Shown here: in pieces, positions 24,616 to 51,600 of the stretch
How the letters are laid out: each line of letters starts with the position of its first letter
Numbering within the stretch: the stretch's first letter is position 1
Assembly: GCF_032062105.1 (NCBI RefSeq)
Contig: NW_026918862.1
Coordinates: 62,001-126,000 of the forward strand
Length of the DNA stretch: 64,000 nucleotides
Direction: 5' to 3'
Source of the DNA: Saccostrea cucullata
Lineage: Eukaryota
Position numbers and translations under genes: made by a program
Notes under the pieces: generated by a model
What the model was told of the DNA's origin: nothing
Seen by the model: only the letters and a program-made list of their open reading frames with translations
The model's database searches: none

Positions 24616-24657
24616 AACTAGAGCAAAGCTCGTTGCAAAGCAACGAGTGGGTCTTCC
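24616..24657 (-). mobile_element. Helentron 3' terminus (subTIR + hairpin + CTAG-TT)
   Basis: Minus strand reads GGAAGACCC-A-CTCGTTGC-ttt-GCAACGAG-CTTTGCTCTAG-TTT; perfect 8-bp stem at 24629-24647; same architecture as 19808-19849. Confidence 0.8.
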
Positions 24658-28443: not shown

Positions 28444-28598
28444 GTAAGGGTTTTCTTTGGGATGTAATAATATGGTTAATATAAGTAAAGGCCTTAAAAT
28501 GAACTGGATTTTTTTACTTTGTCTATGACATTGAATAAGGATTTAATCGTTATGTTTAGATTAACTGTATTCGTGTGATAACCGTTGGTGCAGAAAAC

Positions 28599-31500
28599 AT
28601 GGCGTCGCCGTTAAAGAAACTGAAGAGCGATGATGTAAGTACTTTTGTTGCTTTTCCTTTTTCATTTTTAATTAGTTTTTTTACACGACACTGAAGGATT
28701 ATATTTGATCAGCGGCATTATTCTCCCCCCCCCCCCCCAAAAAAAAAAAATAGCGGGGGGGGGGGGGGGGGCCTTTGTTTCTGACAAAGCAAAACAAAAC
28801 CAAAAACTCTGTAGGCATTTCTGGTTTATTGGATTAGTAATGGAAAATTTAATAGGTTTATTAGGAACAAAGTCTGCATTAATGTTTTTTCAATTTTTTA
28901 TTAATTTATTGTGCTTTTTGCATAAGGGTTTTTTTTTACCTTAACTTTTTTTGATTTATTATTACAATATATGGGTTTGGTTTTGGTTTTATTGGGAAAT
29001 TGTCTAAAATCTCATGAAACTTGTCAGATAGCTAAGCTTTGGATTTGAGACCTTTATTTAATTTGTTATACTATTAAAACAATAGTAAACTTTGTTTTGG
29101 ACATTAAATTAAGGTTTAATTATTTGGTGGTTACAAGATCAACAGTGAGCATTTCTGATCGACAGTGAGCATTTCTGATCAAATTAGTCCATCTTTTGTC
29201 ATTGTTGGTGTCTTTTGAATATTAATTTATGAAGGTATATTCAAGTGTTTGAATTTAATTTAAGGAAGATAATTTGGACTAGTTAAGGTGATGTAATATG
29301 TGTAATATTTGTGATGTTAGTAATGATACTTGGTATAACAGATAATTTATTTCTTAGGGGTGGGGACACTTTATGAGGTCAAAGTTTAAACTTTGACTTA
29401 AATTTGTAAATTATTTTTCTAGAGAGAAATCATAATTTGCCTGTAATCTTGTTAAATTAATTTGAGAAATTAAAGCAGTTTAAAGCTAAAGCCCATACTA
29501 GTCATATATTATAGTTGTAAATGTTGTAAATTATAAGTAACAATTTTAAACTGAAATGTAAAACTATATGAGATGGGTTGTGAAAGTCTTTGGAAAACTT
29601 GATTTGAAATATTTTCTTCAGCATATTATTAACTTACTATAAATTAAATGTAATATTATCTGGCTATTATTGAATTTTTATACACTAAATATTTGCATAA
29701 GAAAGGGCATAATGATTGTGGAAATACTCCGGAAATAGTGATTTACTGAAATTTAAAGTTAAAAATAGTAATCAATACTTTATATATATATATATTTTTA
29801 AAATGATTTTTGAGGCCAAAATTCTTTGTTTGTAGTTACCGATCTATAATTTTCAGGTTGGGTTGGTAGGTAGTTTTTTTTTTAGAAAAAAATTGAGATA
29901 TTTGTTAGATAACAAATAAAAGAGGTTTTGATACACTTACCAGAGATGTATAAGCTGACCACTTTTTATAAACCACAGATTGATAAAAAACGTTTCAAAA
30001 TTTGAAAATTTTAGCATGTTTAGAATTTGAATATTCTGAAATATTGAAATGAAAAAAAAATTATAATTATACCTAATGGCTGAAAAAAGTTTGGGTCGGG
30101 TGCATTTTATTGGGTCGGTAGGCAAATGCAAACATACTTAATTTTATTTTTGGCCTGAGAATAATGTTAAAATTAAGCCATATGATGTAAGTACTATTTG
30201 AGAATTATAAAATGCAGCTGTGTAAGTAATTTACAATAAGAATGAAAATGGTTAGATTTTCAGGGCTTTAGTATATGATTTGCTAAATTGTGCTGGCATT
30301 TTTTTTCCAGCAGGTACACTACTATGTTATTAATTGTTCATGAACTTTAATTTAATAATTTAATATTTGTGTAATTAGTTATATTATTTAGAAATGGTAT
30401 TTAGCTACAAATATATATTAAAAATATCAATTGAAAGTGGGCAATATATAATTATATATTTAAGGTGTTCAATATTCAGCGTAAGCTATATTTTGACTTT
30501 AAAAGTTAAACCTGATATCCCAGCTATGGAATTTTAGTCTTATAATAATGGAATGTGGAACTAAGAATATATGGCCAGAGAAAGATTATTAATAGTTTCT
30601 CAGGTACCGACGCATCAGTTAAAAAACAACCACATTGATCAATTTTATTGACACATTGGAAAGGGAAATAACTCGATTTTTTATTTTTTCTTGTTGGGAA
30701 AATTTCCCCTCTTCATAAATGTTTAAATTGAATTTTTTTGTTAATAGAAAAACCAATAGATTTCTTCTATATTTTCTGTATATTATGAATTAACTTTAAA
30801 ATAAATGTTTGGATTAACTTTAATTAAATTTGAATACATTTTACCCCAGAATAATTACCATTTTCAAAGAAATAAAATTAAGAATTGGTAAATATTATCT
30901 TTTTATTGAACAAATGGTTTTTAAATGGTGCTAAACCTGCTTTGAAAAGAGCCTGCCTGCAGCTTTAAGTTTTTTTGTTTTTGTTTTTTTTCGCCTGAGA
31001 AACTATTGATTATTTTTTTTGGTTTTTAAAAACTTAATTAAGGATCATCCGTTTTACCGGCTCCGCTTATGCGTCGCCAGTTAAAATCAGTTTGCAAGTG
31101 TTAAATTGGCATTAATGGTTGCATATACCAAATTAAAGATAGTTATTCCTTAAATCAAAGAGTGTTTTACAAAATAATTGCATTAGAATTTTGAATTGAA
31201 ACCCTGTCAAAATATGGCTGAATTTATTGTCAACTTGGCATGAAACAATAATAATCCATGAAATACAGTTAAACAACAAAATTGTAAGTGATCAATAATT
31301 AATATGTAATATTTTTTAATGTCTGTATTCTAGTTAAAAACATTAAGAAAATTTAATAAAAACACTACCTAAAATTCTTAGCTATATGAATAATTTATCT
31401 AAACATTTCTAGTATTTTTATAATTAATCAGCAATATAGCCCAAATTCAAAAAACTAGCAAAATAAATCAAGTCAAATTTTTTAGTGAAAATTGACTATT

Positions 31501-34500
31501 AGTATTATCTTATCAAAACTTACCACGGTTACATTCCTATAAAGTTCAATAAATATATTCCAAATGTTCCTCAAAAATCCTTTTAACTGGTTCTTCTTAA
31601 GATGAAACTAACAAGTCATTAGTTAATTTTATTTCTTCCAAGCCATACAATTCCTTACCCCTAAAACACGACTTCTCTAATCAACTTATCAAATCAACAT
31701 ACCAGAAAGCACATATATCTCGAAACATTTTTATTAAGTCTAAGTAGAAGATTAAGTATATAAGTAAAATTTTATCTGAAAACTACATACATGGCGACTT
31801 TTCTGAATGGAAGTAGTTTCCAAATAAACTCTAGATTAAAATAAGTTAAGTAATCTCCATGCATGTAACACAACAAATAACACATTTAACTCCAAAAATC
31901 TTTTACGATCGGGCTCGATGTACACCTTTTACGACCGCCAAGTTTGCTAACATTTCACAAGTTTACAAGGCTATATACCTGCAATAGTCTACTTAAAACA
32001 ACTTAAACTGCAAGAAAACAGGATTCTGTCCATAAATCTATGGTTAATCTACTACGGAAGACCAATCAAAATCCCTGGCACTCGAAGTAAGCTCAAACAG
32101 TTTCACAACTTAACTACTGCTATAATCAGCTGATTTCAATATGTACACGTTACAAACTATTTCAACTCATGTAAATCTGTTAAACTTGTCAATTATCACC
32201 TTTCAACAACATGTAAAGCATAAATTAATACATATTCTTGCATTGTCAATTAACTAAAACACAAAAGAAAAATCATCTCAACCTCGTACAATGTCAACAA
32301 TAATCATGTTCAATAACTGTATAAAACTAATCTGTCAGGCTGTCAATTCACTAAGCTGTTACAAAATATCGATCATCATTCATTCAAAGCCACATATATT
32401 TATTATTTACCACTTGTTAAAATGGCTACAACATTATTTCAATAAATCTTAAGCTTAGTGACTAGCACAGGCTAGACCCTCTGTATAGGTTAATAGCACT
32501 TAACTCATTGATAGTTATAATTAATAGTCCAACAATACAAGTAAATGGCAGCCATATGCAGAAAATTCAATTTTTGTAGGCAGTTGTAAGCTAGGTTCTT
32601 GTTTATTACATTTATTAGGACATTGAAATCAACATTAAAATTTTCTCTTGAACCTAATCAAATTACGCCAGAAAACCACTTTGATCTGCAAACGAAACTG
32701 TCTGGGGAATCTATCTTGTCCTCAGTCCTATACATGTACAGATATGTGACATAACTGCAAAGAAACTGGTAAGGGATTAAAGACTTCTAAGGAAAACTGC
32801 TTATTCCCAACACCCCAGCAGTAACTAGAGAGCAATAAATACCTAACTCCTGGAAACTGTTTGAAAACTTCTAAAAAATTTTAAACTGCTAAAGAATTGC
32901 TTAATAACTGCCCATATATACAGCGGCGGATCATAATATTATAAACAAAATGGCGTCGTCGCGTTATTAGCAACATACGGATCCGGTATATAAAAAAACG
33001 ATTTCTCCATTATAACAGATTTGTATAAATGAAACTTACCTAATATTTTGTGGCATACCCCTTTGATCTTATAATCTTGATCATTCGTTGTGGAAGTGAT
33101 CTGTAAAGGTTCCGTATATAATGAATGGGGATGGTGGTCCATATTCTCCGAATTTCTTGTTCTAGATCCGCTGCGTTGGTAATTCTGTTTGCACATTTTC
33201 TAAGCTGATTTTTCAACAAAAGCCAACAGTTTTCAATTATGTTAGCATCCGGAGATTGGGCAGGCCACAGCATTCCTCGAATATTATTTTCAGTTTTGTA
33301 ATTTAGCACAATCCTTGCGCGATGTACTGGCGCATTGTCATCTTGAAAAATAAAGTCATTCTGTGGAAAATGCTGGGCAACAACTGGCCACAGTTCATTA
33401 TCAATTATTTCCCTGTACTTTTCAGCTTTGATATTGCCATTGACAACTGTCAAAGTACCTGGTCCATTCCAGCAGATACATCCCCATATCATTAGACTAA
33501 CCTTTGCGCCACGACTGGGGCTAATGCATTGCGGCATCCACTCCTCTCCGGGTCTCCGCCACACATATACGCGATTATTTTCTCCAATAATCACCTTACA
33601 TTCATCAGAAAAAATAACACGATTCCAGTCACCATCAACTTTCCAATGCCTTTTCCCCCTAGCCCACTCAACTCGTTTCTTTATGTTTACATCTCGGATT
33701 CGTATGTTTTTTCTTACAACTCGTCTATGGTATTTATTTTGGAACAAACATCTTTTTACAGTTACTTCTGAAACAGTATCCCCCCTAAACTTTTTGAATC
33801 TGGCAGTGATATCTTTCAGAGGTTCGACACGATGTGTTTTTACCAACCTTAAAATTGACCGTTCGTCCTGCACACTAAGTTTTTTCTTTCTTCCCTTTCT
33901 AGGATTATTCTCCACCGAACCCCGCTCCTGATATCGCTTTATCACAGCACAAACTGTACATGGGTTTGATCCCAGGCACTTTGCAATTTTTCATTGTTTT
34001 ATTCCACTCTGAAAACTATTTACGATCCTTTGTTTTAAGCTTGGTGATAAATCTTTCGCCTTTCCCATTCTCTGTTTACATACAGAATGACGTAATTTAT
34101 TGCATCACAATCATGATACGTCATATCTTATTATAACATAATACGTCTTTTAACCCAGTCATGTGCCCTTTTTATTGAAACATGCATACTGAGAGGAGCT
34201 ACAGATAAATAAGAGTGATCGTTTTTTTAACCGCAATTGGAACGCCATTTTGTTTATAATATTATGATCCGCCGCTGTATATCCATGTTGTCCCATTCAG
34301 AGAACATAACAGACGCTGATGACTTTGTTGCACAATGACATGTTGGTGTGATAATTATGAATTCTTATTTGATATATAGTATCTCTTATATGTCTGTATG
34401 TTTTTTCATCCCACTGGTTTGAATGTGCAGGTGATAGCTGATCAAAGTTGGAGACATTATATTAAATGTTTAGGCCAAAGTTTTTTTATGTCTTGGTTTA

Positions 34501-37500
34501 CAATTTCGCCAACCCTTATTTTCCCTATTTACAGAAATAAGAAACTGGATTCTTATATCCAAACGACAGTTTTATAATTTACATCACAAATTGTTTCTGT
34601 GCTAATGACCAATGCATCAAATACTTTGTCGGAACTCCTCTAGATTTTTATCTGGTTGTGAAAAAGTGCATTATAAGAAGTTACACACAAGACGCAGAAC
34701 AGCTGGGTGGCTATCGATGTTGGGGAAGATTATAGATCTTTTTACTGTCAAATAATTAATTCATGTTGCAGTGTGCGCAAAAACTTTTTTTAGCACTAGC
34801 TCAATCGGGCTAGTAATTAAGAACAATTACTAGCCGGAATCAGATTTGTTGTCTCGCTTAAACCAGTCGTAATTCATAGATAGTCATAATGCAGCCATAA
34901 CCGGAAGTATTTTTTAAACCCAAATTGTACAGAGAAGACCGATTGCGGAAAGTTCTTGACACGCTTAAACAAAAGAAACCCACGCACATGTAAAAAGAAA
35001 GGAAACAATAAGAATTCTTATACTTATTTTATTACTTTAAAAGATTTACTAACAAATAAAGGTAAAATGCATGCAACTTTTCACTAGACCGATTGGGCTA
35101 GTGCTGACTTACATTCAACTAGCCCGATCGAATTTTTACTAGTGTTCGGCCATCGGGCTAGTCCTTTTGGCGCACACTGATGTTGTGAATGCATACATAT
35201 TTTTACTGTTAAATTGTGAAATTATTAACTTCTTAAGATCACACATTGGATCCGATAAACATATGTGTAAAATAATCGGTATGCGTGAAAACTTTTATAA
35301 GAAAATGAATTTTATATTTAAAACAAAACTTGAAGAGAAATTAACAAAATCATGACTTTGCCAAAAGTCTGGAAATCTAATGAGAAGAGAAATTTTAGAA
35401 GTTTAAGGTTGTGCTACTATATATGGGTCATTTTCAAAAAATGTCTATTTTTTTAATTACATATTTTGAAAAATGAAAGTGGTTTTACTATGATTTTTTC
35501 AACTTTATTTGAATAATATAGTAATAAACTACTAAAATCCACTGCATTGCATAAAAGAAAATATTTCTTTTAAAAAATATTGACATTTTATCTTAGTCAT
35601 TTAAACTTTAATGTCCTTCCTGTTACTTTCATAAAAAGAGCTGTAAAACTCTATTTCAAAATTTTCATCAAATTATCTTTTGTATACCGTTAATAAATGA
35701 AAAAATTATCACTGAAAGCCAAGATGTTTGACATTCATCTAATATATGAGCGTTTAAAAGCATGTCAAACTACCATATACCAAACAGAAGCAAAATCTAC
35801 GGGTTTTTCTTCATGAAAAGCCTTATTGCGGAATGTTTATATGCTATAGTTGAAAAAAAACATTCTTGTACATTATTTTTGTGATTAGAATAAACAGTTA
35901 CAGAAAGTTATTTAAACAGGTGCTCTGCCAAAGCAATTTAAACTAGGAAAATATACTGGTAACAGTAAGGACTCGGGTAACAGAAAGGACAAAAACAGTA
36001 ACAGGATGGACAAAACAGTGTAACAGGATGGACAATGAAATCTACATTTTAAATAAAAATTGACTTTTTTTAACTTTATTGGTTAGGAAAAGAGAAATAA
36101 ATGTAGAATAAAAAAATGATTTTGTCAAATCTGGCAAATTTGAGACAATAAAAGACATTTATGTCCATCCTGTTACGAAATTTAATTCTAAAGTGCTATT
36201 AAAATATTTATCAGTTCAATTTTTGTTTATTAAAGGTACTCTATGCTGTTGCAAAACTAAGAATTTTTCATAATTTTAAGAAAAACAAATGATGAAACTT
36301 AAATAGGTATATAAATACCAGGGTAATTTGTCCCTCTTGTTACAATTTTTGTCCATTCTGTTACAAGAGTGCATGTTTAAGTTATAATGGCACAATTTGA
36401 AGCACTAACTTATTTCAATATGATTTACGAAGTTTTTTAACATGTGTTATTAAACTTATATTACTTGAAAAATAAAAGTAATTGTTTTTACTGTTAAAAC
36501 TCAAGATATGAAGTCCAGTTTTCCTTACTGTTACCATATTAATGGTAACAGGAATGACAGTAACAGGATGGACATTTCTCATATAAATCACCGGTTATTT
36601 AGTATAACGTACTCTTTTTGCATCATCAAGACATTGAAACAGTTTCTTTGTAACTTAGTAAATCTGATTGTTTTAGCAGAATAAACAATTTAAAGAGTAT
36701 TTGCATATTATGAAGGTAACAGATAGGACATATTTTCATTATACTCTACCAATAAGACAAACTTATCGACCTTTGAACCCTTTCTTTACTCACTTTCAAA
36801 TCATGGCGCTCATAAACTTCAGACAACAGAAAATGATGATATATTGTGTATCATGAAAACAGTTCCTAGGAAAGTGAGATATCTTTTATTTTAACATTTT
36901 CTTTCTGATAACAGGAATGACATAAACTGGTGGGACATGTCACTTCCTGAATGTTAAATGCACGATACTAGTATTTAGTGGGAGGCATAAGTAAAACAAT
37001 CATATTAAATTAATCTGTAAATGAATTCAATTAAAATGAGGTGCAAAATTTGTACATATCTTCACAGGGTAATATTTTCCCTATCATTTAAATAAGCGCG
37101 TTATAAAATTTTTGTTAATGTGACATGGTTTTCCTGTTAAATTTTACTCGGAATGCAGAGAATATTTTTTATAAAACACCTAGGAGATGATCATAAAATT
37201 ACTTATAAGCTATATGACCATGTATATTAACCAACGGGAAAAAAAATTTCACTCTAAAAAATGTTTTCCTATTATTCTGATCAAAAGACAAAAAAGTGGA
37301 CTTTTTTTGAAAATGGCCCATATATCTATGAAAAGAAAAATGTTTGATGAAAAATTAATCTGATATTTAGATACTTTTACATTTTAATTTTAGCATGTTT
37401 AGTACATGTAGTTGAAATTTTATTTGATGTCAATGTTGCTTTATTATTTTTTTCTATAGATATTTATACCTTGTAATTTGAGGAAATTTCTTATAAGATT

Positions 37501-40500
37501 ATTTTCTGTTATTAAATCATTTTAAATATAATGTTTATACAGAAATTTTTTTTGAAAAATTTGTAATTCATAAACAATGAAATATTTTTTTATCGATTAA
37601 TGTGTGCCACATACGCTCCAAGAAGTCTACCTAAATTTCAAAACTTCTCAATTTCTTTGATGGAGAAATTTTTGGTCTTCGTTAATTGTAACCTGGACAC
37701 ACGTATCTTAATTTAAGGTAAAAGTTTGTTGTTAAAGCAGTCAATGACATTCAGAGTTTCCAAAAAGTTTTTCATAAGTGGATGGGTTGACCAGAGAATA
37801 GCAGATTCACTCAATTTTACCCATGTAATGTGTCTATTATGTAAACTCAGACTTTAAATTCATAAGAATCAGAACATTTGTAAAATCTGAATCTGAATAC
37901 CTGAAAATCTAAATCCTGTAAATTATATCTGATAATCTGAATACATTTCAATGCTACTGGAGAAAAAAAATATGTCAAGGTTTCAAATTATTTTATTCGA
38001 CTGCCCAACGCATATTTTGTGCTGTTGTATATCTCTATATACTAAATATAATCAGGCTTACCAAGGGTAAGGCTGGCCTCAAACCCTGAAGGGACAGATG
38101 TGCGTCTATGCTTGTCAGTGTCAGGTAATAGAAAGCCCCTAAAAATAGGAGACCTATAATCAAGTAATCCAACCCCGAACCCGATGTAAATAAGTGTATT
38201 TGTACTACAGTGTCAAAAAATCGTAAACCTAATAAAGTAAAAACTTTGGCCTTAGGTTTTTATTATAGCTTTTAGTCATAGAGCCTCATGCTTTGTTTAG
38301 AAAGGGTCGTTTATGCATCAGATGTAATGTCTATGGGAGAAGTTGAGTCCATTTATGGTAGAAATAAACAATAGGCTACTTTTGTGGAAAAATATTTCAA
38401 TAATTTTAAAGCAAGTATATACAAATAATACAATAGCCTAATTTAAGGAAGTGAAATATTTCAATTATTGAAAAACAAGTATTATAAAAATATATAAAGA
38501 CAATATTTGAAGGGGGAGGAAATAAGCACCTCCTTAAAATTTATCGGTCTTAGAACCCTTGTCAATCATCTGAAATAAGCCTGGGATTGGATACTTTGAT
38601 TTGAATGACATTTTAATAATTGGCTGCTGTTGTGTATATCTTTTGTACCTTGTCTGGAGATTTACCGATCATCGAATTAACTTTCAGGCTTTTGATGCCT
38701 ACTGCACATGCCAAGGTGATAGAGCAGCAATCAAATCGTTGTTTTCTATTTTTTTTTAATTTATAAGAATATGCCATTAATATAGTCAATCTATCAAATA
38801 ATTAAATAAATGACAAGAAAAATCATGGCTAATTAATATATATTATAAATTTGATTTTAAAAGGGTGGATTTTATATCGCGATTACAATCATAATTTTAA
38901 TTTCCGTGTCAAAACATGAGTTACGGTACTTTTAATCCTTCATTAATTAACAAAATAAACTGACCTGCGTTTGAATCTAGTTTCATATTAGTTTAATTTA
39001 TTTTTTTAACAAGTATGACAACATTGTAACATTACTCACGAGTCAAGCGAATTTATATTTATAAGAATAACCTGTACGTATACGTGTCGTTTTTTTTCCG
39101 AGACATGGTGATGAAGTAACGGTATAATAATAAGTTTTAGAAGAGAAATTAAACGGAATTTAACATCTTGCTTTGAATTTAATGTTTGAAATTAATAATG
39201 AGTGTCGAAAAAAAAAAACGATGCAAATGATTTTATTTCACTTTCATAACTGTCAGGGAATCATTACCGCTGTCCATTAGGAACTGACCATTGTTATTTA
39301 CTGAGAGACTGTTCCTCTCGCGTACTGACGCGTAGATGACATGTATTTGAATTACTTCCCTTTTCGTCGCCAGATTACAACGTCAGATTTTGGTGCTGTG
39401 TATTTTTGTTATAACACTTCATTAAAAAACACACTGTATATAAAAAATGTTGAATTATTGAACATATCAATTATTTTATGAAAAGAAAAAAATTGGGAAG
39501 GATTCTGTCTGCAACAAAAAATACTTTATTTTGCATTTTAATTCATGAGCTAAACATGGAAAAAAATGGCCTCAGTTTACAAAGTCATAGGAATTTGCAT
39601 ACTGGTAATACACCCAGGTAATATCCTGTGTGTATTGGTAGTATACACAAGCCAGCGTCGTTCCCTTGGGGCTTCTCATCCGCTTTGATTAAGCTCCATC
39701 CCACACCAAACTTACCTGAGGAAAACCGTAAAGTTAAAAACCTTGTCCTTTAAACGTATGCATGTGTTTTGTCCAACATCACAAGATTTAAATCACTCAA
39801 GGCCCAAACTGGTTGATGTTTAATGATGAAATAAACAATTTGTGGGTTTATTTTTCCATTTGTAATCTAATGTTTCCAGTGGCACTCAGGAAGCTTTTAG
39901 ATTTTAAGTGAGCATAAATAAGTAGCAAAAATTAATGTGGGAAAGTTGATCATGTATCCAGGAAAAATAATTTTTTTTCTTTGTTAATTTCCTCCTTTTA
40001 CTGGATTTTTTCTTTCTGATGTTTGTAAACCTAAATGTAAGACTATACTGTTTCTTTTTGTTCATTTTTTACAGGTATCTGGGATTAATATGTATACAGA
40101 ACATAAATTATTTTATAGTTTGGTGGAATCTGGTTATTTGCTGGAATTAATAATTAGTTTTGTTTTGTAGGGCCCAAAACCCATGACAATGTTTGTGTTG
40201 GAAGATGTTGTAACGAGAAGATACGCCAATGGTGAACAATCATACGGCACGTCGTGGATGGTTTCTAGTGACACTAACTACAAGACACTAAAGCAGGTGA
40301 TCGTGCATGAAAAACATCTAAAGATGCTGAAGAAGATGACTGCTTTTTTAGTTGTTAGATACACTCTGCTGGAGGATGGGACAGTGAAGCTGGGCCAGCA
40401 GACTGTGGTATGTCTTAATTAATATATATAAGTTAAAAGTATAGGAAAGGTATAAATATGATGAAATGTGATTTTACTTATACTTTATAAAATGAGATAT

Positions 40501-43304
40501 ATAAGGATAACTATTTGTTATTAAGCAACTATTTTTAAATACATTGGTTTTAGCTCGTGAAACTGAAATTTTTATTGTGCATTCTATACTGGTTTATCAT
40601 TATTTGCTTCATGGTATTATTAGTGTGTGCCCTTTGCATTTGAATATCTCATTGTTGTTGATATGATAAATTGCAATGAATGTTATTTGTTCTTAAATGT
40701 GTTGATTACTGCAATGATTAAGGTTTTTGGTACAAAGCTTTTATGCATTGTAACATCATCAAAAACCAACAGGTGATCTTTACTTATCACTTGTGGAAAA
40801 ATCTTCGTTTGTAATTAAATATGCATGGGTCATTTAATTGGCCACATTACAGAGTTGCCATGCAAAACAACGTACAAATCACAGTTCATGTTACTTATGC
40901 ATGTTCAGCATTGCAAACATCATAAAAATATGTTGCATTTTGCAGTTAGAATGTGGTACTTATGTAATATTTGACGGAAATTAAATATCAATGACATTGT
41001 TTCAATTAAACTTTGCACTTTTTAACGAGTGTCAAAGTATTCACCTTAAATAGCAAAGTAATAAATATATTTTAAATATTGAGTTCCAACTTTCTAATTG
41101 GTTGACTAAAAACAACAGATTTGTCAGAGACCAGAAGACTTATGCGATAGTAATGCGTTTGTTGTCCATCTGTCTGTCTGTCTGTAAACAATTCTTTCAA
41201 AATGCTATTCCTTCTATAGTTTTGGTCCAATTTCAATATAACACAAGTAGTCTACACTAATATACATAATTCTATGCATGGGTTTTAGATTTTCTATCTT
41301 AAGCTATGCAATTGTGATAAAGTTATTACTTGAAGCCTTAATTAAGTATTGCTATAGGAGAATTTTATTTTTGATTTTTTGCAGGTGTTCTTATATTGAA
41401 AACTAAATTATAAACCCTTGAAACTCCATGAAATTGAAAATTGTCTAGTAAAAAGTGCACTCTTTTCCTATCTGTAACTTGAAACAGAAACTTGAAACTG
41501 TAAACTCAAACTTAATTTCCAGTCATAGTAGAAAATTCATTAACTGCGAATTTTTGGTCTTTTCAACTTTGATTTATAAATATATTTTTGAAATTTGAAT
41601 TGTTTAGTATATATTACAACTGCCCTAAAATAGGATGTTGTGATTGTTATGCATTAGAGGATGGAAGTTTAACTATAATAATATTTTAATCTTGATTTCC
41701 TTTTTTTTAAATTGAAGTGGTTGCTGTATTTTCTTTTATTTTTCTCATTAAAGGTAATGCAGAGCGGAAGGCCCGCAGCCATCACTGATGATGTAATTAT
41801 GACTTTTGTGCAGCCTCCCGTTGTAGAGGAGCTAGGCAGGATAAGTTCTTTCGAGAACAAAAAACGGATCAGCGTCAAGGGGGAGGTCACGAAGGTGAGT
41901 GTAACTTTCTTGATACACATCTCTGATAAAAATATTGGAACATGTGTAATATGAAATTCTGTGCTAAAATTTTTTTTTCTTAAATTGATGATAATATTTT
42001 CCATCTTTGTATTCATGATTATGCAATTATTTTTTGAATAATATAGAAATACATAGTGTTTAAATTGGGAATAATTATTCTTATGCTATTATTACATTTT
42101 TTTAAAGCATTATATCAATTGTATTACTTGAAATTATGTGAAGCATACAATTTCATTTAAGGTCTCAAGCATCATTGAAGGATCAAAGTCAAAGAGAAAG
42201 ATCATTACTCTATCGGATGGCCAGGCTAGCATAGACATCAAATTGTGGGGTGGTCTCTCTGAGACTGTTATTCATGAGGGGACGACCATTGAGGTTTCTT
42301 GCGTCCATGTCGATGTCTATCAGAACAAGCGTTCATTAAACTCCACTGGTGGCACCCAGATCAAGGTGAAATATTGTATTTTTATTTCTTATTTTTTGTG
42401 AAGTTTTTTTTCTAGTACAATAACCTTAAATTTCAACTTTTCATAATTTATGTTCTTGTTACACAATGAAATACTGTGCATGTAATTATTTACATATGCA
42501 AGACATTCAGCTGTGTATTTGATTTAGCGATTGTTGAGTTCTACCAAGTCGATCCGTTAGATCGATACACAGCCAATTGTGATATGTTTACAGTAATGCC
42601 TATTCTAATTCATGACCATTTCCTTGTGTTATTATTTTAGATTACTGATGCTGAAGAAGATTTTCAGGGATACATCGAGGGAGTCTCCTTTGATGAGTAA
42701 GTAAAGTAATAAACAATAGTATGACATTCAAAATTTTTACATGGAAAGTGTTTATTTATTTGGTGGCAAAATTAAATTTGAAGAATTCATTTGGTGTTTT
42801 AAATATGTTTTCTGAAAATCTATTTAGATTAATAATACATAATTGTTTGTTTTGCAGGAGCTGTTTGGCCATCTTTATTAACGACGAGGTTCTAACTTGT
42901 ACTGCTAACCATGTTGACAGCCTCTTCCCAACGCACGAGTTTGTTGACAGAAAGCATGTGAAGGGAAAGAAGAAAGGCAGTATTGTTATGTCAATGTAAG
43001 TTTAAATGCTAACAGCAGTTTTTCCATATTTTAATTGACTCAAATAATTTTTCAACAAAGTGGAAAAGATGAGCAATAAATTTACAGATTATGAGTACAT
43101 GCAACTGAACTTGTGTTAATTAATAATTAAAAACGTAAGGCTATAGACAGTCTGACATAAATTATTTTAAAAAAATTAAGAGAATTTATATAATCATTTA
43201 GTGAGGAGCACATCTTGGCAGAAGAAGAAGATGAGCTGCTTGCTGGTGGCAATCAGGCGGATGAAGAGCAGCTTGATGAGAGCGTTTTAGCTGAGAAGCA
43301 GTAA
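28599..43304 (+). CDS. OB-fold (RPA70/SSB-like) putative ssDNA-binding protein, 7 coding exons, 304 aa, acidic C-tail
   Basis: Exons 28599-28634, 40171-40407, 41754-41894, 42162-42365, 42641-42696, 42858-42995, 43202-43304; all GT-AG, phases 0,0,0,0,2,2; 915 nt open frame. OB motif RISVKGEVTKVS...KRKIITLSDGQASIDIKLWG...EGTTIEVSCVHVDVYQNKRSLNS; tail EEHILAEEEDELLAGGNQADEEQLDESVLAEKQ. The link to the first coding exon across an 11.5-kb intron is less certain; alternative start at ATG 40183. Confidence 0.8.
29814..30155. mobile_element. Harbinger/Zator-like MITE (342 bp)
   Basis: GGCCAAAA.../...TTTTGGCC TIR; 3-bp TSD TGA on both sides; GGGTCGG/GGTAGG subterminal motifs; related copy at 62070-62430. 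Confidence 0.8.
32921..34277 (-). mobile_element. Full-length Tc1 transposon (1357 bp)
   Basis: Perfect 36-bp TIRs CAGCGGCGGATCATAATATTATAAACAAAATGGCGT (32921-32956 / 34242-34277); TA TSD on both sides. Confidence 0.97.
33040..34068 (-). pseudogene. Tc1 DD34E transposase with one premature stop at codon 26
   Basis: ATG at 34068 gives MGKAKDLSPSLKQRIVNSFQSGIKQ*KIAK...; TGA at 33991-33993; then 301-aa ORF with GRKKK, VIFSDE, FQDDNAPVH, WPAQSPDANIIE (34 aa between D2 and E) and GYATKY. Confidence 0.93.
34769..35179. mobile_element. MITE with 6-bp TSD (hAT6-like), 411 bp
   Basis: TIR CAGTGTGCGC(A/C)AAAA; TSD ATGTTG at 34763-34768 and 35180-35185; subterminal ACTAGCCCGA/TCGGGCTAGT repeats. Confidence 0.8.
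35425..37319. mobile_element. Non-autonomous DNA transposon, Sola2-like (1.9 kb)
   Basis: 30-bp TIR GGGYCATTTTCAAAAAA... (4 mismatches); 4-bp ATAT flanks; about a dozen internal GTAACAGGATGGACA-like motifs in both orientations; no ORF. Confidence 0.75.
41100..41400 (+). mobile_element. Degenerate HINE/DINE-like fragment in an OB-gene intron
   Basis: (CTGT)n tract at ~41170-41185 followed by GTAAACAAT..., like the 5' part of non-autonomous Helentrons; boundaries approximate. Confidence 0.45.
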
Positions 43305-43659: not shown

Positions 43660-44960
43660 AATTTTTTTCCTGATTTTTTAGCATTTTAAGGAAGAGGCCT
43701 TCATTAATCTTTTCCACTTAAGTGCATTTATAAAGAATCCTGATTTTTTTATGCATTGACACAATTCCAATTCAGTATTTCATTTATCAGAAATGGTTTT
43801 TAAAATTGACTTGAACTGGACTGATAATCATTTTATTTTTATTTTCCATTACATGCTGAGTGGCCGGTGTAATTTATGAGTTAGTTTTATACATGTATTT
43901 AAAGTATAGTTTTGAATTGGTGCATTTTTTATGTTTAGCAGCTTTGGTATTACGATTTATAAAATACTCATTATATGTTGTAAAGTATGTTTAGTTTTTT
44001 TAAAATATTTTTTTTATAAGCTCAAGCGTTTTGTATTTGAAAATTGTATGCTCAAGCGTTTCGTATTTGAAAATTGTAGCATGTTAAATTTGTGTTGGTC
44101 AATTCGTTTTGTATTAATTCCAATTCCAATTCAGTATTTCATTTATCAAAAATGGTTTTTAAAATTGACTTGAACTGGACTGATAATAATCATTTTATTT
44201 TTATTTTCCATTACATGCTGAGTGGCCGGTGTAATTTTTGAGTTAGTTTTATACATGTATTTAAAGTATAGTTTTGAATTGGTGCATTTTTATGTTTAGC
44301 AGCTTTGGTATTACGATTTATAAAATACTCATTATATGTTGTAAAGTATGTTTAGTTTTTTTTAAATATTTTTTTTATATGCTCAAGCGTATTGTATTTG
44401 AAAATTGTATGCTCAAGCGTTTTGTATTTGAAAATTGTAGCATGTTAAATTTGTGTTGGTCAATTCGTTTTGTTTTAAACTTGAGTTTTATTTCTTAATT
44501 TAAGGCTTATTGTTCTCAAACTGAATGGAAAATTTTTTCTGATTTTTTAGCATTTTAAAGAAGTGGCTTTCATTGATCTTTCTCACTTAAGTGCATTTAT
44601 AACGAAACTTAGGTGTTTTATGCATTTAAACAATTCAAATTCAGTATTTCATTTATCAGAAATGGTTTTTAAAATTGCCTTGAAATGGACTGATAATCGT
44701 TTTTTATTTTTATTTTCCATTACATGCTGAGTGGCCGGTGTAATTTATGAGATAGTTTTATACATGTATATAAAGTATAGTTTTGAATTGGTGCATTTTA
44801 TGTTTAGTAGTAAAGTATGTTTAGTTTTTTTTACATATTTTTTTTATATGCTCAAGCGTTGTGTATTTGAAAATTGTAGCATGTTAAATTTGTGTTGGTC
44901 AATTCGTTTTGTATTAAACTTGTGTTTTATTTCTTAACTTTAGGCTTATTGTTCTCAAAC
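43660..44960. repeat. Recent tandem triplication (~360-510 bp units) just 3' of the OB gene
   Basis: CAATTC(C/A)AATTCAGTATTT...GAGTGGCCGGTGTAAT block recurs at 43762, 44121 and 44631 with high identity. Confidence 0.92.
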
Positions 44961-45737: not shown

Positions 45738-46208
45738 TTACTGTTAACTTGCAATATCATGTTGAAGATGTAACTTATTTATTGTACATTGCCCTATCAT
45801 GTTGAGAGCATAACTTATTTACTTCACACTTGCCATTTTATGTTGAAGATATCACTTATTTTCTATAAACTTTCCATATCATGTAGGAGATGTAACTTAT
45901 TTCCTTATTTTGCCTTACATGTTGAATATGTAATTTATTTACTGAACACTTGCCATATCTTGTTGAATATGTAACTTATTTACTGAACACTTGCCATATC
46001 TTGTTGAAGTTTTAACTTAATTATTACAGCACTTTTATCATATCATGTTGCAGATGTAACATGTTTTCTGTACCCTTGACATATCCTGTTGAAGATGTAA
46101 CTTATTTACCGAACAATTACCATATTTTGTTAAGTTTTAACTTATTACTGTAAATGTGTCAAATCATGTTGAAAATGTAACATGTTTACTGTACGCTTGC
46201 CATATCAT
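45738..46208. repeat. Degenerate ~41-bp minisatellite (~11 copies)
   Basis: Unit TGTTGAATATGTAACTTATTTACTGAACACTTGCCATATCT; period 41 at 45961->46002. Confidence 0.9.
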
Positions 46209-48623: not shown

Positions 48624-51600
48624 TTACTTTTTCAGGTTGACTAACACTGCTTCATGATAGCTGTAGTATGTGGGTACCTTAAATGTCTCAAGTTCCAATG
48701 GACATGTTGTGTACACCAAATCTAGTACAGTTTGCTGCTCAGTTGTGGGGAAACTTACAACTTGTGTAAAGCCTTTCTCAAACATGAACTTTTGTACTGG
48801 TCCACCAATTTTTGCATTCTCATTGAAATCCCCAAGTATGATGCCTCTGTAATTTGGTAATAATACTGATTTCATCACATTTTCTAATGCTATCAAGAAG
48901 TCTTTGGCTGGCAAGACAGAAGGTCTGTAAATATTCACCAAAATTACTTGCTCTTGTATTAGCTTTAAAGCTATACACTCTATGTTTTTCCCACAAATTG
49001 GAATTATTACAGCATTTGAGCTTTTTCTGCTGTACACTGCAACACCTCCACCGTTTGATGTACGTAATCTATCTGTTTTACAATTCTCACTATTATATGA
49101 CTCTGCTCTCGATATATGACAGAAATTGTAATCCTCAATTTGAAAGTTTGCTGTATCTTGACCTTGTGTCAGCCATGTTTCTGTTAAACACAGGATATCA
49201 GCATTCCAAAAGCGACAATCATGTTTCAGATTTTCAAAATTTCCAGCTAAACTTTGAATATTGTGTAAGATGATCTTTGTACAACTTAGCAAACTTGATC
49301 CTTCATTTTGGACTGGAAACAAAAGTGGCATTTTTTCAATTGATGATTTAACATCGGCATCAGCATGTATCTTCTTTTCTAGGAGTGCCTCATCTGCTGT
49401 CTCTATAAAAAGCCCTCTCAAAGATGTTACTCGACTTAGTGCAACATATGCCTGTCCAGGGGAGAATGACTTGTCTAAATTAACAACAATTTGGTCTGCT
49501 GTCATACCTTGCACTTTATGGGCTGTGCACGCCCAGGATAACTTTAATGGAAACTGGTGACGAACAACACTTTTTGATTTGTTTACTTTGACTTCTTCTT
49601 CTATTCTCTCTATGAGAACTATGTGCCCATTTGCAGCACTTTTCCCTGTTTTTTTTCCAACATTTTTGTTATCAAATTGAACACCTATTGCTTTGATAGA
49701 AGATTTTCCATTTTTGTGTTCTGTCAGAAAGTGTGAGATATTACCCATTACACCATTGACCAACCCATCATCTACATTGATGTTTCTTATAAGCATAACT
49801 CTTGCATTTACTGAAAGAAGGATGGAAGCACTTAGTCCGTCTAACTTGGTACTTGATAAGGGACTCTCTCTTAGTGAAAGTTTTCCAGTTGTTTTGTCTT
49901 TCTGATAGTCTAATGCATCAATTTCAACAAGTTCTTCAGATGTCTTTTTCAGCATAGACAGATTGAAGTTATTCACCTCATCATTTGTTGAATATACATG
50001 CAAAGCATCTTCTGGACCATCTCTAATACAATTCTTCAGCATATGTTTGGTTTCCTCTGACAAGTTTTCCTCCTTTGTTCGTATGCGTAAAGTGTTTAGA
50101 AACATTGCAAATGGAACATCTTCACGCTGCCTCATCACTTCATTTAATTCAACAAGTTTAAAAAGTTCTAGCCAGTGATCATCAGGATATGATCCATTTT
50201 CTTTGTATAGACGTTCATTTTTTGATTGCTTTACTGGTGGTAGTTGAAAGAAATCACCAACAGCTAGAACTGTAACTCCTCCAAAGGGCTTTTTGCATTT
50301 TTTAATTTGAACAAGTCTTTCATGCACATAGTAAAGGAGCCTCTTATATACCATTGACACTTCATCAATGACAAGGATTTGTAGCGATTCCAGTTTGACT
50401 CTAAGAGTACTAAGACTCTGTTCATTCTGTGGTTCATACGGGAGTGGTAAAAATTTTGTCAATGCAAAAACTTTATGTATTGTGTTTCCACCAATATTAA
50501 AAGCTGCTGTGCCCGTGAATGCTGTTAAGACTACGGAAACACAATCTGGTGATGGAAGATTTTTACTGAACAAACGTTCTGCTTCAAAATGGACAGCTTT
50601 TATCAGATGGCTTTTCCCTGTTCCAGCTCCACCAGTAACAAAAATATGAAGTGGATCAATTTCTTCACCTGCGACTCTTTTTAGACACCAATCTCGCACA
50701 TGATAAAATATTTTCTTTTGTGTTTCATTCAAGGATTGCAGAACTGGTAATATTTCCTGCTTTGTGCTATTACTTTGCTGAACTACATATGAGAGATTTT
50801 CTGTGGGAAATACATTGTCAATATCAGGGAGCACATCATTATGGTCATTTTCCTGCAAATCTGGTCTTTTTCTTGTTGACATACATTCTTTTCTGCTCAC
50901 TTCAGTCTCTGGACAGAGTTGGGCCCATGCATCTTCTGGTTCACCGACCATGTCAAATACTTCTTGAGCGGAGTTAACGACATCTTCATTTTTAGCAAAA
51001 CAAGCTCGATTTGCATCCACAATAGATTTTACAGATTGCAATTTCCTTTTCTTAGACATTCGGATATGTCCCTTTTCATAAAAAGACATGTACAAGTCAA
51101 AACCTTTGGGTTTTAGTTGTTCCTCTTTCCTGTGTGGCAAATAAAGTTGCAGTAAAGACTGATAATACTTTTCTGATGATTTTTCTGAGCTGAACCTTGG
51201 GTATCTGATCACAGCTGGATTTGTTCTTGTTCTCTGCTGTATAAAACCTTTTCCATTCTGCAGCTCATACACAGACTCATTTGGTCCTTTTGGCACTTGG
51301 GATTTTGATAGAACTCTGAACTCTGAACAGAACTGTGCTAGACACATCCCTTGAAACTTATCACTGTCTGGTCGATTTTCATATCGTTCTATAATATTTG
51401 TCATCCAAATACTCTCTTCGTCATCGTCGTCATCATCATCATCACATTTTTGAGCATTTCCTTCATATTTTTTCCTTTTCATTTGAGAAAGAGGTTTACT
51501 AAGGCGGGTTGGGTTGTCACCAACAGGTATAAATACAATTTTTCTAGAACACTCCTTCATTTTTAAGTTACAAACTCTGTACACAGCCTCCTGGGCACTT

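Follow-up and report, generated by a model that had tools for sequence, protein, structure and literature searches.

In the oyster Saccostrea cucullata, a 64,000-nucleotide stretch of one contig (the window) holds a gene for a small OB-fold protein beside an intact Helentron RepHel gene. The locus raises the question of whether this OB gene belongs to the transposon or to the host, and which form of DNA its product binds. We propose with moderate confidence that it is a transcribed 304-amino-acid gene, an optional accessory that likely resides in a large oyster Helentron, and that its three predicted OB domains likely bind the ssDNA displaced in rolling-circle transposition. It is best read as an SSB carried by the element, a compact form of the known Helitron RPA-like genes.

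The gene consists of seven coding exons, the first intron of which carries an unrelated transposon:

28599..28634, + strand: coding exon 1 (36 nt), aa 1-12, basic NLS-like motif
32916..34282, − strand: Tc1/mariner element in intron 1, not part of the product (41-nt perfect inverted repeats; DDE_3 and HTH Pfam matches)
40171..40407, + strand: exon 2, aa 13-91, OB1
41754..41894, + strand: exon 3, aa 92-138, helices linking OB1 to OB2, then the first OB2 strand
42162..42365, + strand: exon 4, aa 139-206, OB2 core with W167, H187 and Y191
42641..42696, + strand: exon 5, aa 207-225, start of OB3
42858..42995, + strand: exon 6, aa 225-271, minimal OB3
43202..43304, + strand: exon 7, aa 271-304, acidic tail (modelled with low confidence) and stop

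The preliminary description had confined the gene to 40171-43304. The six exons in this interval have GT-AG borders and join in a single frame of 292 amino acids plus stop, free of internal stops, so the one-frame splicing holds for them, but the true exon count is seven. The length of 304 amino acids and the N-terminal SPLKKLK, both given correctly, require exon 1, which lies outside that interval, 11.5 kb upstream of exon 2; the window has a single SPLKKLK, at 28605. Nor is the gene unannotated: our model is letter-identical to RefSeq XP_062610871.1 (P0006; Saccostrea cucullata LOC134272683 isoform X1), annotated without a function as ‘uncharacterized’. The Tc1/mariner element in intron 1 has a 316-aa open frame, and its copies elsewhere are 95-97% identical.

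All six introns were found spliced out in contigs of public runs, which bears out the junction support that had been asked of RNA-seq. The five downstream joints are all present in runs X1 and X3 and four of them in X5, and the first-intron joint (28634-40171, 11,536 nt) was seen in three of four runs (X1, X7 and X8); the joint-bearing runs come from five coded studies, and their RNA label is a guess, yet the joints skip GT..AG introns. Contigs of runs X2 and X4 contained no joint, which carries no weight as absence. Transcripts extend upstream of exon 1 to at least position 28488, and no canonical polyA signal is present within 1.3 kb of the stop codon. The OB gene and its splicing are real.

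Two features of the window place this gene in a Helentron context:

24616..24657, − strand: Helentron 3′ terminal box made up of a subterminal repeat, a hairpin and a T run; it faces inward to the OB gene and RepHel
48624..56492, − strand: RepHel, intact, 2622 aa, HLE2/Helentron type (Herpes_teg_N, OTU, basic region at ~aa 650-875, DUF6570, Rep, Pif1 helicase, AP endonuclease)

The OB gene sits between them. Pfam matches give RepHel the combination of Rep, Pif1, DUF6570 and a C-terminal AP endonuclease, which is the HLE2/Helentron signature in the available part of PMC11417382. A sequence resembling a splice acceptor immediately precedes the ATG of RepHel (56490-56530), which makes non-coding exons further upstream probable. 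The OB gene and RepHel are convergent, and a 361-bp tandem duplication and a 41-bp array lie between them (43762-44478, 45747-46208). The box at 24616 displays the subterminal repeat, palindrome and T-rich flank described for Helentron termini in the accessible sections of PMC4067079 and PMC7492417, and its hairpin (−9.8 kcal/mol) was equalled by 2 of 200 shuffles. A relaxed scan of the window from 24616 to 64000 found no other terminal box, 5′ boxes included.

One pair of terminal boxes, with the 3′ box of the same type as at 24616, brackets RepHel in 11 of 12 loci that were picked blind, on long contigs and regardless of OB genes, and delimits elements of 25-39 kb there; 147 kb of Tc1 control DNA contained no such box. 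In five of the 11 bracketed loci (L129-L199), RepHel is antisense to the element; terminal boxes there are stacked in tandem, as if elements insert at each other’s ends. Since 3′ boxes are common genome-wide (8,252 exact core matches) and the 5′ end is not seen in the window, the 24616 box could close another element. A conserved stretch at 18.7-20.6 kb, considered as an element end, was rejected, being a short non-autonomous element and a truncated one with the same termini. Copy comparison for the ends of the window’s element, tried on both flanks, returned only unrelated repeats. Of 150 listed Rep matches (from 509 candidates), 65 belong to open frames no shorter than 2400 aa and mostly show 71-79% identity with the Rep core of the window; by this measure, many intact HLE2 families coexist in one oyster assembly.

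Some relatives of the OB gene elsewhere in the genome keep the same company. With the window left out, a listed Rep is found no more than 35 kb from 6 of 69 OB loci, compared with 0 of 149 Tc1 loci (Fisher P 0.0009; 149 Rep matches used from the list of 150 among 509 candidates), while none of the 69 is near a Tc1. The fetched DNA contained 34 OB clusters. Among the ten multi-exon copies (at least three exon types), an inward 3′ box is found within 10 kb of five and an outward one near one (P 0.008 against a 14% background); these counts are not independent, as two copies on contig C1237 form an inverted pair and three copies were chosen knowing that a Rep is near, and leaving out the latter gives 3/7 inward. 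The corresponding figures for the fragment clusters are 2/24 inward and 1/24 outward. No copy was seen enclosed by both element ends, and on the tree the RepHels that have an OB gene next to them are not grouped together (4 changes; 88 of 500 shuffles were as low). Because half of the multi-exon copies lie inside a 3′ end but an OB family exon was detected with three profiles in none of the 12 blind-picked RepHel elements, the OB gene fits an optional accessory near the element 3′ end, sometimes without RepHel close by. The earlier view of the gene as element-encoded is thus backed by its position between RepHel and the 3′ end and qualified by its absence from those 12 elements. In the window, the OB gene likely lies inside the same large Helentron as RepHel.

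Two observations on individual copies stand apart. Exon 2 (window 39927-40692) is dispersed at 73-85% protein identity, in some copies with stops, on contigs C387, C20921, C22802, C7968, C15884, C5709, C12397 and C18712; in the four of these contigs that were fetched, the intron flanks are present and no other exon of the same subfamily is. At C1237:86-32452, two OB genes in back-to-back arrangement each lie 5-6 kb in from a 3′ box that points outward, with no RepHel in 40 kb, and this pair represents either inverted OB-only elements or an assembly artefact.

The strongest competitor to a transposon accessory is a host gene: the family would have come from Helentrons or been picked up by them, the present copy would now be fixed for the host, where it may bind ssDNA in replication, at telomeres or in repair, and RepHel would be a mere neighbour. 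The 5′ region (exon 1) is single-copy in the assembly and the nearest Rep core is 79% identical to that of the window, so the window’s own element looks old or rare; with near-identical spliced contigs of the OB gene in five studies, there is no sign of recent movement. An 11.5-kb intron that carries later insertions, a full-length relative in the Pacific oyster (68% identical) and the 12 RepHel elements devoid of the gene point the same way. Against this stand 84 exon matches in the genome, several of them copies that are 30-50% identical and share the exon layout, the overrepresentation of family loci close to Rep and a short way inside 3′ boxes, several Pacific oyster copies within one 90% cluster, and a family scattered over animal groups. 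We consider a host gene unlikely on balance.

The form of DNA that is bound was approached through the predicted structure. AlphaFold2, run with an 80-sequence alignment, returned a confident model (pLDDT 91, pTM 0.80) with three β domains at about aa 13-110, 113-208 and 210-275, followed by a low-confidence tail, and the OB protein is predicted to comprise three OB-type domains. OB folds were thus predicted in the AlphaFold and Foldseek check that had been suggested for the 304-aa model, and the description of a compact multi-OB protein lacking a Zn ribbon stands, as the protein contains no CxxC motif. The RPA-type OB pattern read from the sequence agrees with the modelled folds, but the Pfam match to PF01336 (E 1.6e-4) is under the curated cut-off. 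OB3, folded alone, reached pLDDT 84; its best matches are SSB, LEF-3 and PriB (Z 7.7-6.9, over 60-70 of its 76 residues), and the other structures that it matched are presumably OB folds as well. Foldseek returned nothing for the isolated OB3 at E 0.001 (Ten1 came closest, 7e-3), and all its Z scores are below 8; it is likely a minimal OB in the model. A viral fold search also returned baculovirus LEF-3 for the protein (E 5e-10, TM ~0.3), which we take as a common multi-OB fold and not as an origin.

For OB1 and OB2, the structure matches raise an alternative in which the gene is still element-borne and its product is a HIN-like dsDNA binder, with OB1-OB2 clamping element ends or circular intermediates, or masking the DNA from host sensing. 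The first 14 rows of the Foldseek listing are all HIN domains (p204 best, E 9e-14, then AIM2, p205, p202, IFI16 and MNDA), and Ustilago RPA70 follows at rank 16 (E 6e-11). With VIA, the best two-domain match is the HIN domain of p205, a dsDNA binder (Z 15.4, rmsd 5.6, 184 residues aligned), and the domain-pair rmsd is 11-13 for RPA70-AB and Teb1-AB. OB1 and OB2 are also basic (pI 9.6 and 8.8). As modelled, OB1-OB2 are therefore predicted to match HIN-200 at least as well as RPA70. VIA Z values that differ by 1 or less are ties, however, and the p205 HIN is tied with Teb1 OB-B (Z 14.9) and with the Methanococcus RPA domain (Z 14.6, rmsd 1.6, 88 residues of OB2 only); human RPA70-AB comes next (Z 14.1, rmsd 11.3, 186 residues), and the orientation of OB1 to OB2 in the model is uncertain.

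The sequence comparison favours ssDNA. Searched against the PDB, the family profile found Sulfolobus SSB first (E 8e-9, over only ~90 residues) and RPA70 over OB1-OB2 (E 1.4e-7; human RPA70 5e-4), both of which outscore the AIM2 HIN domain (6.8e-4); a nine-sequence profile gave nothing significant against the PDB (best SSB, E 0.49). In the alignment, counted by eye, W167, H187 and Y191 of OB2 correspond to W56, W75 and F79 of SsoSSB, which stack on ssDNA bases according to the available text of PMC5027503. Over ~70 family rows, position 167 is W in 99% and position 191 aromatic in 97%; W167 is the most conserved internal position, and the SSB-type aromatics are the top conserved residues of the family. 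The nearest Atlas clusters are one from a mollusc and one from a chordate, followed by archaeal RPA/SSB. A dsDNA-binding role is accordingly rather improbable, and we retain the interpretation as an ssDNA-binding accessory.

The OB gene is under purifying selection. Exon 2 compared with its five nearest copies yields a dN/dS of 0.05-0.16, more distant copies are saturated at synonymous sites with their frames open, and all six differences in exon 2 between run X1 and the window are synonymous. These data make it very unlikely that the gene is a neutral passenger, captured (gene capture by Helitrons is described in the accessible part of PMC11417382) and taking no part in transposition, despite the many single-exon fragments, some with stops, and two young exon-4 fragments with dN/dS of 0.90 and 0.29.

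Acidic tails of bacterial and phage SSBs recruit helicases, and the preliminary description had likened the C terminus of the OB protein to such a tail. Its last 33 residues do contain 13 D/E and one K/R, but a long acidic tail (at least 20 aa, net charge −6 or lower) occurs in just 4 of the 35 members that reach the third domain among 40 aligned, some of whose models may be truncated, and all four belong to the close oyster group. The tail is a subfamily trait that does not define the family. By analogy with bacterial and phage SSBs, it could dock on the basic region of RepHel, as had been suggested; modelling the OB protein in complex with aa 1900-2385 of RepHel, the Pif1 domain, without alignments gave a score of 0.01, which counts neither for nor against docking. 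The N-terminal basic motif, which plausibly acts as an NLS judging by its sequence, is kept in close relatives, and other subfamilies have a C-terminal basic motif.

Among known systems, the closest are the Helitron/Helentron RPA-like genes (mite Helentron RPA, plant PHRPA/Mothra and HLE2 RPA/Ssb-like_OB), which, in the available portions of PMC4067079, PMC4683698 and PMC11417382, are likewise separate optional genes beside RepHel with tandem OBs and proposed ssDNA binding. RPA-like, Ssb-like_OB and HIN domains are reported for Helentrons (PMC4067079, PMC11417382, in part), and the oyster OB copies without nearby RepHel recall Mothra and the RPA-only partner elements of plants (PMC4683698, in part). 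The mite Helentron RPA is an intronless gene for a 358-aa homologue of RPA70 DBD-A/B with strong CDD matches, whereas the oyster gene has six introns, only sub-threshold Pfam OB matches and a minimal third OB. It also adjoins an HLE2 of the Herpes_teg_N/EN type, whereas HELIANO confines HLE2 RPA to another subgroup.

Outside transposons, crenarchaeal SSB/hSSB1 (Sulfolobus SSB, 1o7i, 2mna) provides the best sequence match to OB2, with aligned stacking positions, but has one OB and not three. SsoSSB, too, has an acidic tail. Bacterial-type SSBs are characterized by a conserved acidic C-terminal tail, in contrast to the sporadic one here. RPA70 (DBD-A, B, C) shares three tandem OBs, including the tandem DBD-A/B arrangement, but an RPA70 orthologue would have a Zn-ribbon DBD-C and ~600 aa; the oyster protein is half that length, lacks an N-terminal F domain, has an OB3 of ~65 aa and packs differently in the model (rmsd 11-17), and PF08646 (Rep_fac-A_C) is absent from all nine close oyster members. 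No RPA32/14-like partner was seen. HIN-200 of the PYHIN proteins (AIM2, IFI16, p202, p204) resembles the oyster protein in its tandem OB pair of ~200 aa and supplies the top Foldseek and VIA matches, tied in Z with RPA-type folds; the oyster protein differs in its 13-16% identity, its third OB and its SSB-type Trp, in having no pyrin or other death-fold domain, and in that PF02760 (HIN) matches none of the nine oyster members. The oyster gene extends the known Helitron RPA-like genes, and the bridge to HIN and PYRIN is the surprising part.

Combining these observations, we envisage the following course of events for the ssDNA-binding accessory. The basic motif would bring the OB protein to the nucleus, where OB2 would stack on bases via W167, H187 and Y191 and OB1 would lengthen the site. 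The protein could then shield the strand that is nicked by the RepHel HUH domain and unwound by its Pif1 domain. Elements that lack the OB gene would borrow host RPA or use the OB protein in trans, and the acidic tail, as a subfamily add-on, may recruit RepHel or another partner. The role of the known Helitron RPA-like genes rests on homology; here an expressed, selected and compact version with named residues is at hand, in a clade where the ends of the 25-39 kb elements serve to delimit them.

The likeness to HIN-200 and the fusions to PYRIN and CARD in fishes were unexpected and had no place in the preliminary description. At E 0.001, a profile search retrieved 234 representatives, of which the best 150 were seen; among 20 members looked up, the named ones come from oysters, scallop, abalone, sea star, acorn worm, fishes and newt. 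An oyster-only profile matched a 13-sequence profile of fish, newt and unnamed members over 221 columns (probability 99.2%, E 2e-19); a second profile-profile comparison was left out, as its two profiles had rows in common. Among 35 members scanned, Pfam cut-offs were passed for HIN by five, all distant (P0091, P0100, P0135, P0149, P0171), for PYRIN by three and for CARD by one. Fish and newt relatives are among those that pass the HIN cut-off, and several carry PYRIN or CARD. In fish proteins P0091, P0140, P0159, P0168 and P0217, an N-terminal extension, in several with PYRIN matches, precedes the three-domain OB unit; in P0152 and P0224, also from fishes, a CARD does so. The newt proteins P0171 and P0228 belong to the same set of uncharacterized proteins with a death-fold domain ahead of this OB unit. 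From their sequences, the fish and newt death-fold-OB proteins look like PYHIN-type DNA sensors outside mammals.

Against the PDB, the fish/newt profile found HIN first (p204 9e-13, p202 4e-12) and RPA70 next (4e-11). The 27 proteins retrieved by a homologue search with this profile include none that bears the name of a mammalian PYHIN; archaeal-type RPA appeared at E ~1e-33. As far as sequence comparison goes, the link to HIN is one of homology across the OB superfamily, and RPA is almost equally close. We draw no order of events, because the family tree lacks HIN sequences and its outgroup, for which the archaeal label of P0180 and others is our assumption, is non-monophyletic. The available part of a 2012 survey (PMC3458909) reports no trace of HIN outside mammals, and that of PMC11417382, the figures of which may bear on which species are meant, counts HIN among domains nearly exclusive to HLE2; the literature searched, mostly without subscription papers, contained no publication linking HIN to Helitrons.

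These results hint that the HIN domain may have originated in connection with a transposon. Speculatively, and with more doubt than belief, we put forward an undescribed animal three-OB family that was spread by Helentrons and fused to PYRIN or CARD in fishes, one such lineage leading to mammalian HIN-200 (AIM2, IFI16). At the sequence level, the family connects the oyster proteins with the PYRIN/CARD-OB proteins of fishes and with mammalian HIN, and makes it testable where this major domain of innate DNA sensors came from. If this scenario is true, a transposon’s own DNA-binding protein became a host sensor of foreign DNA.
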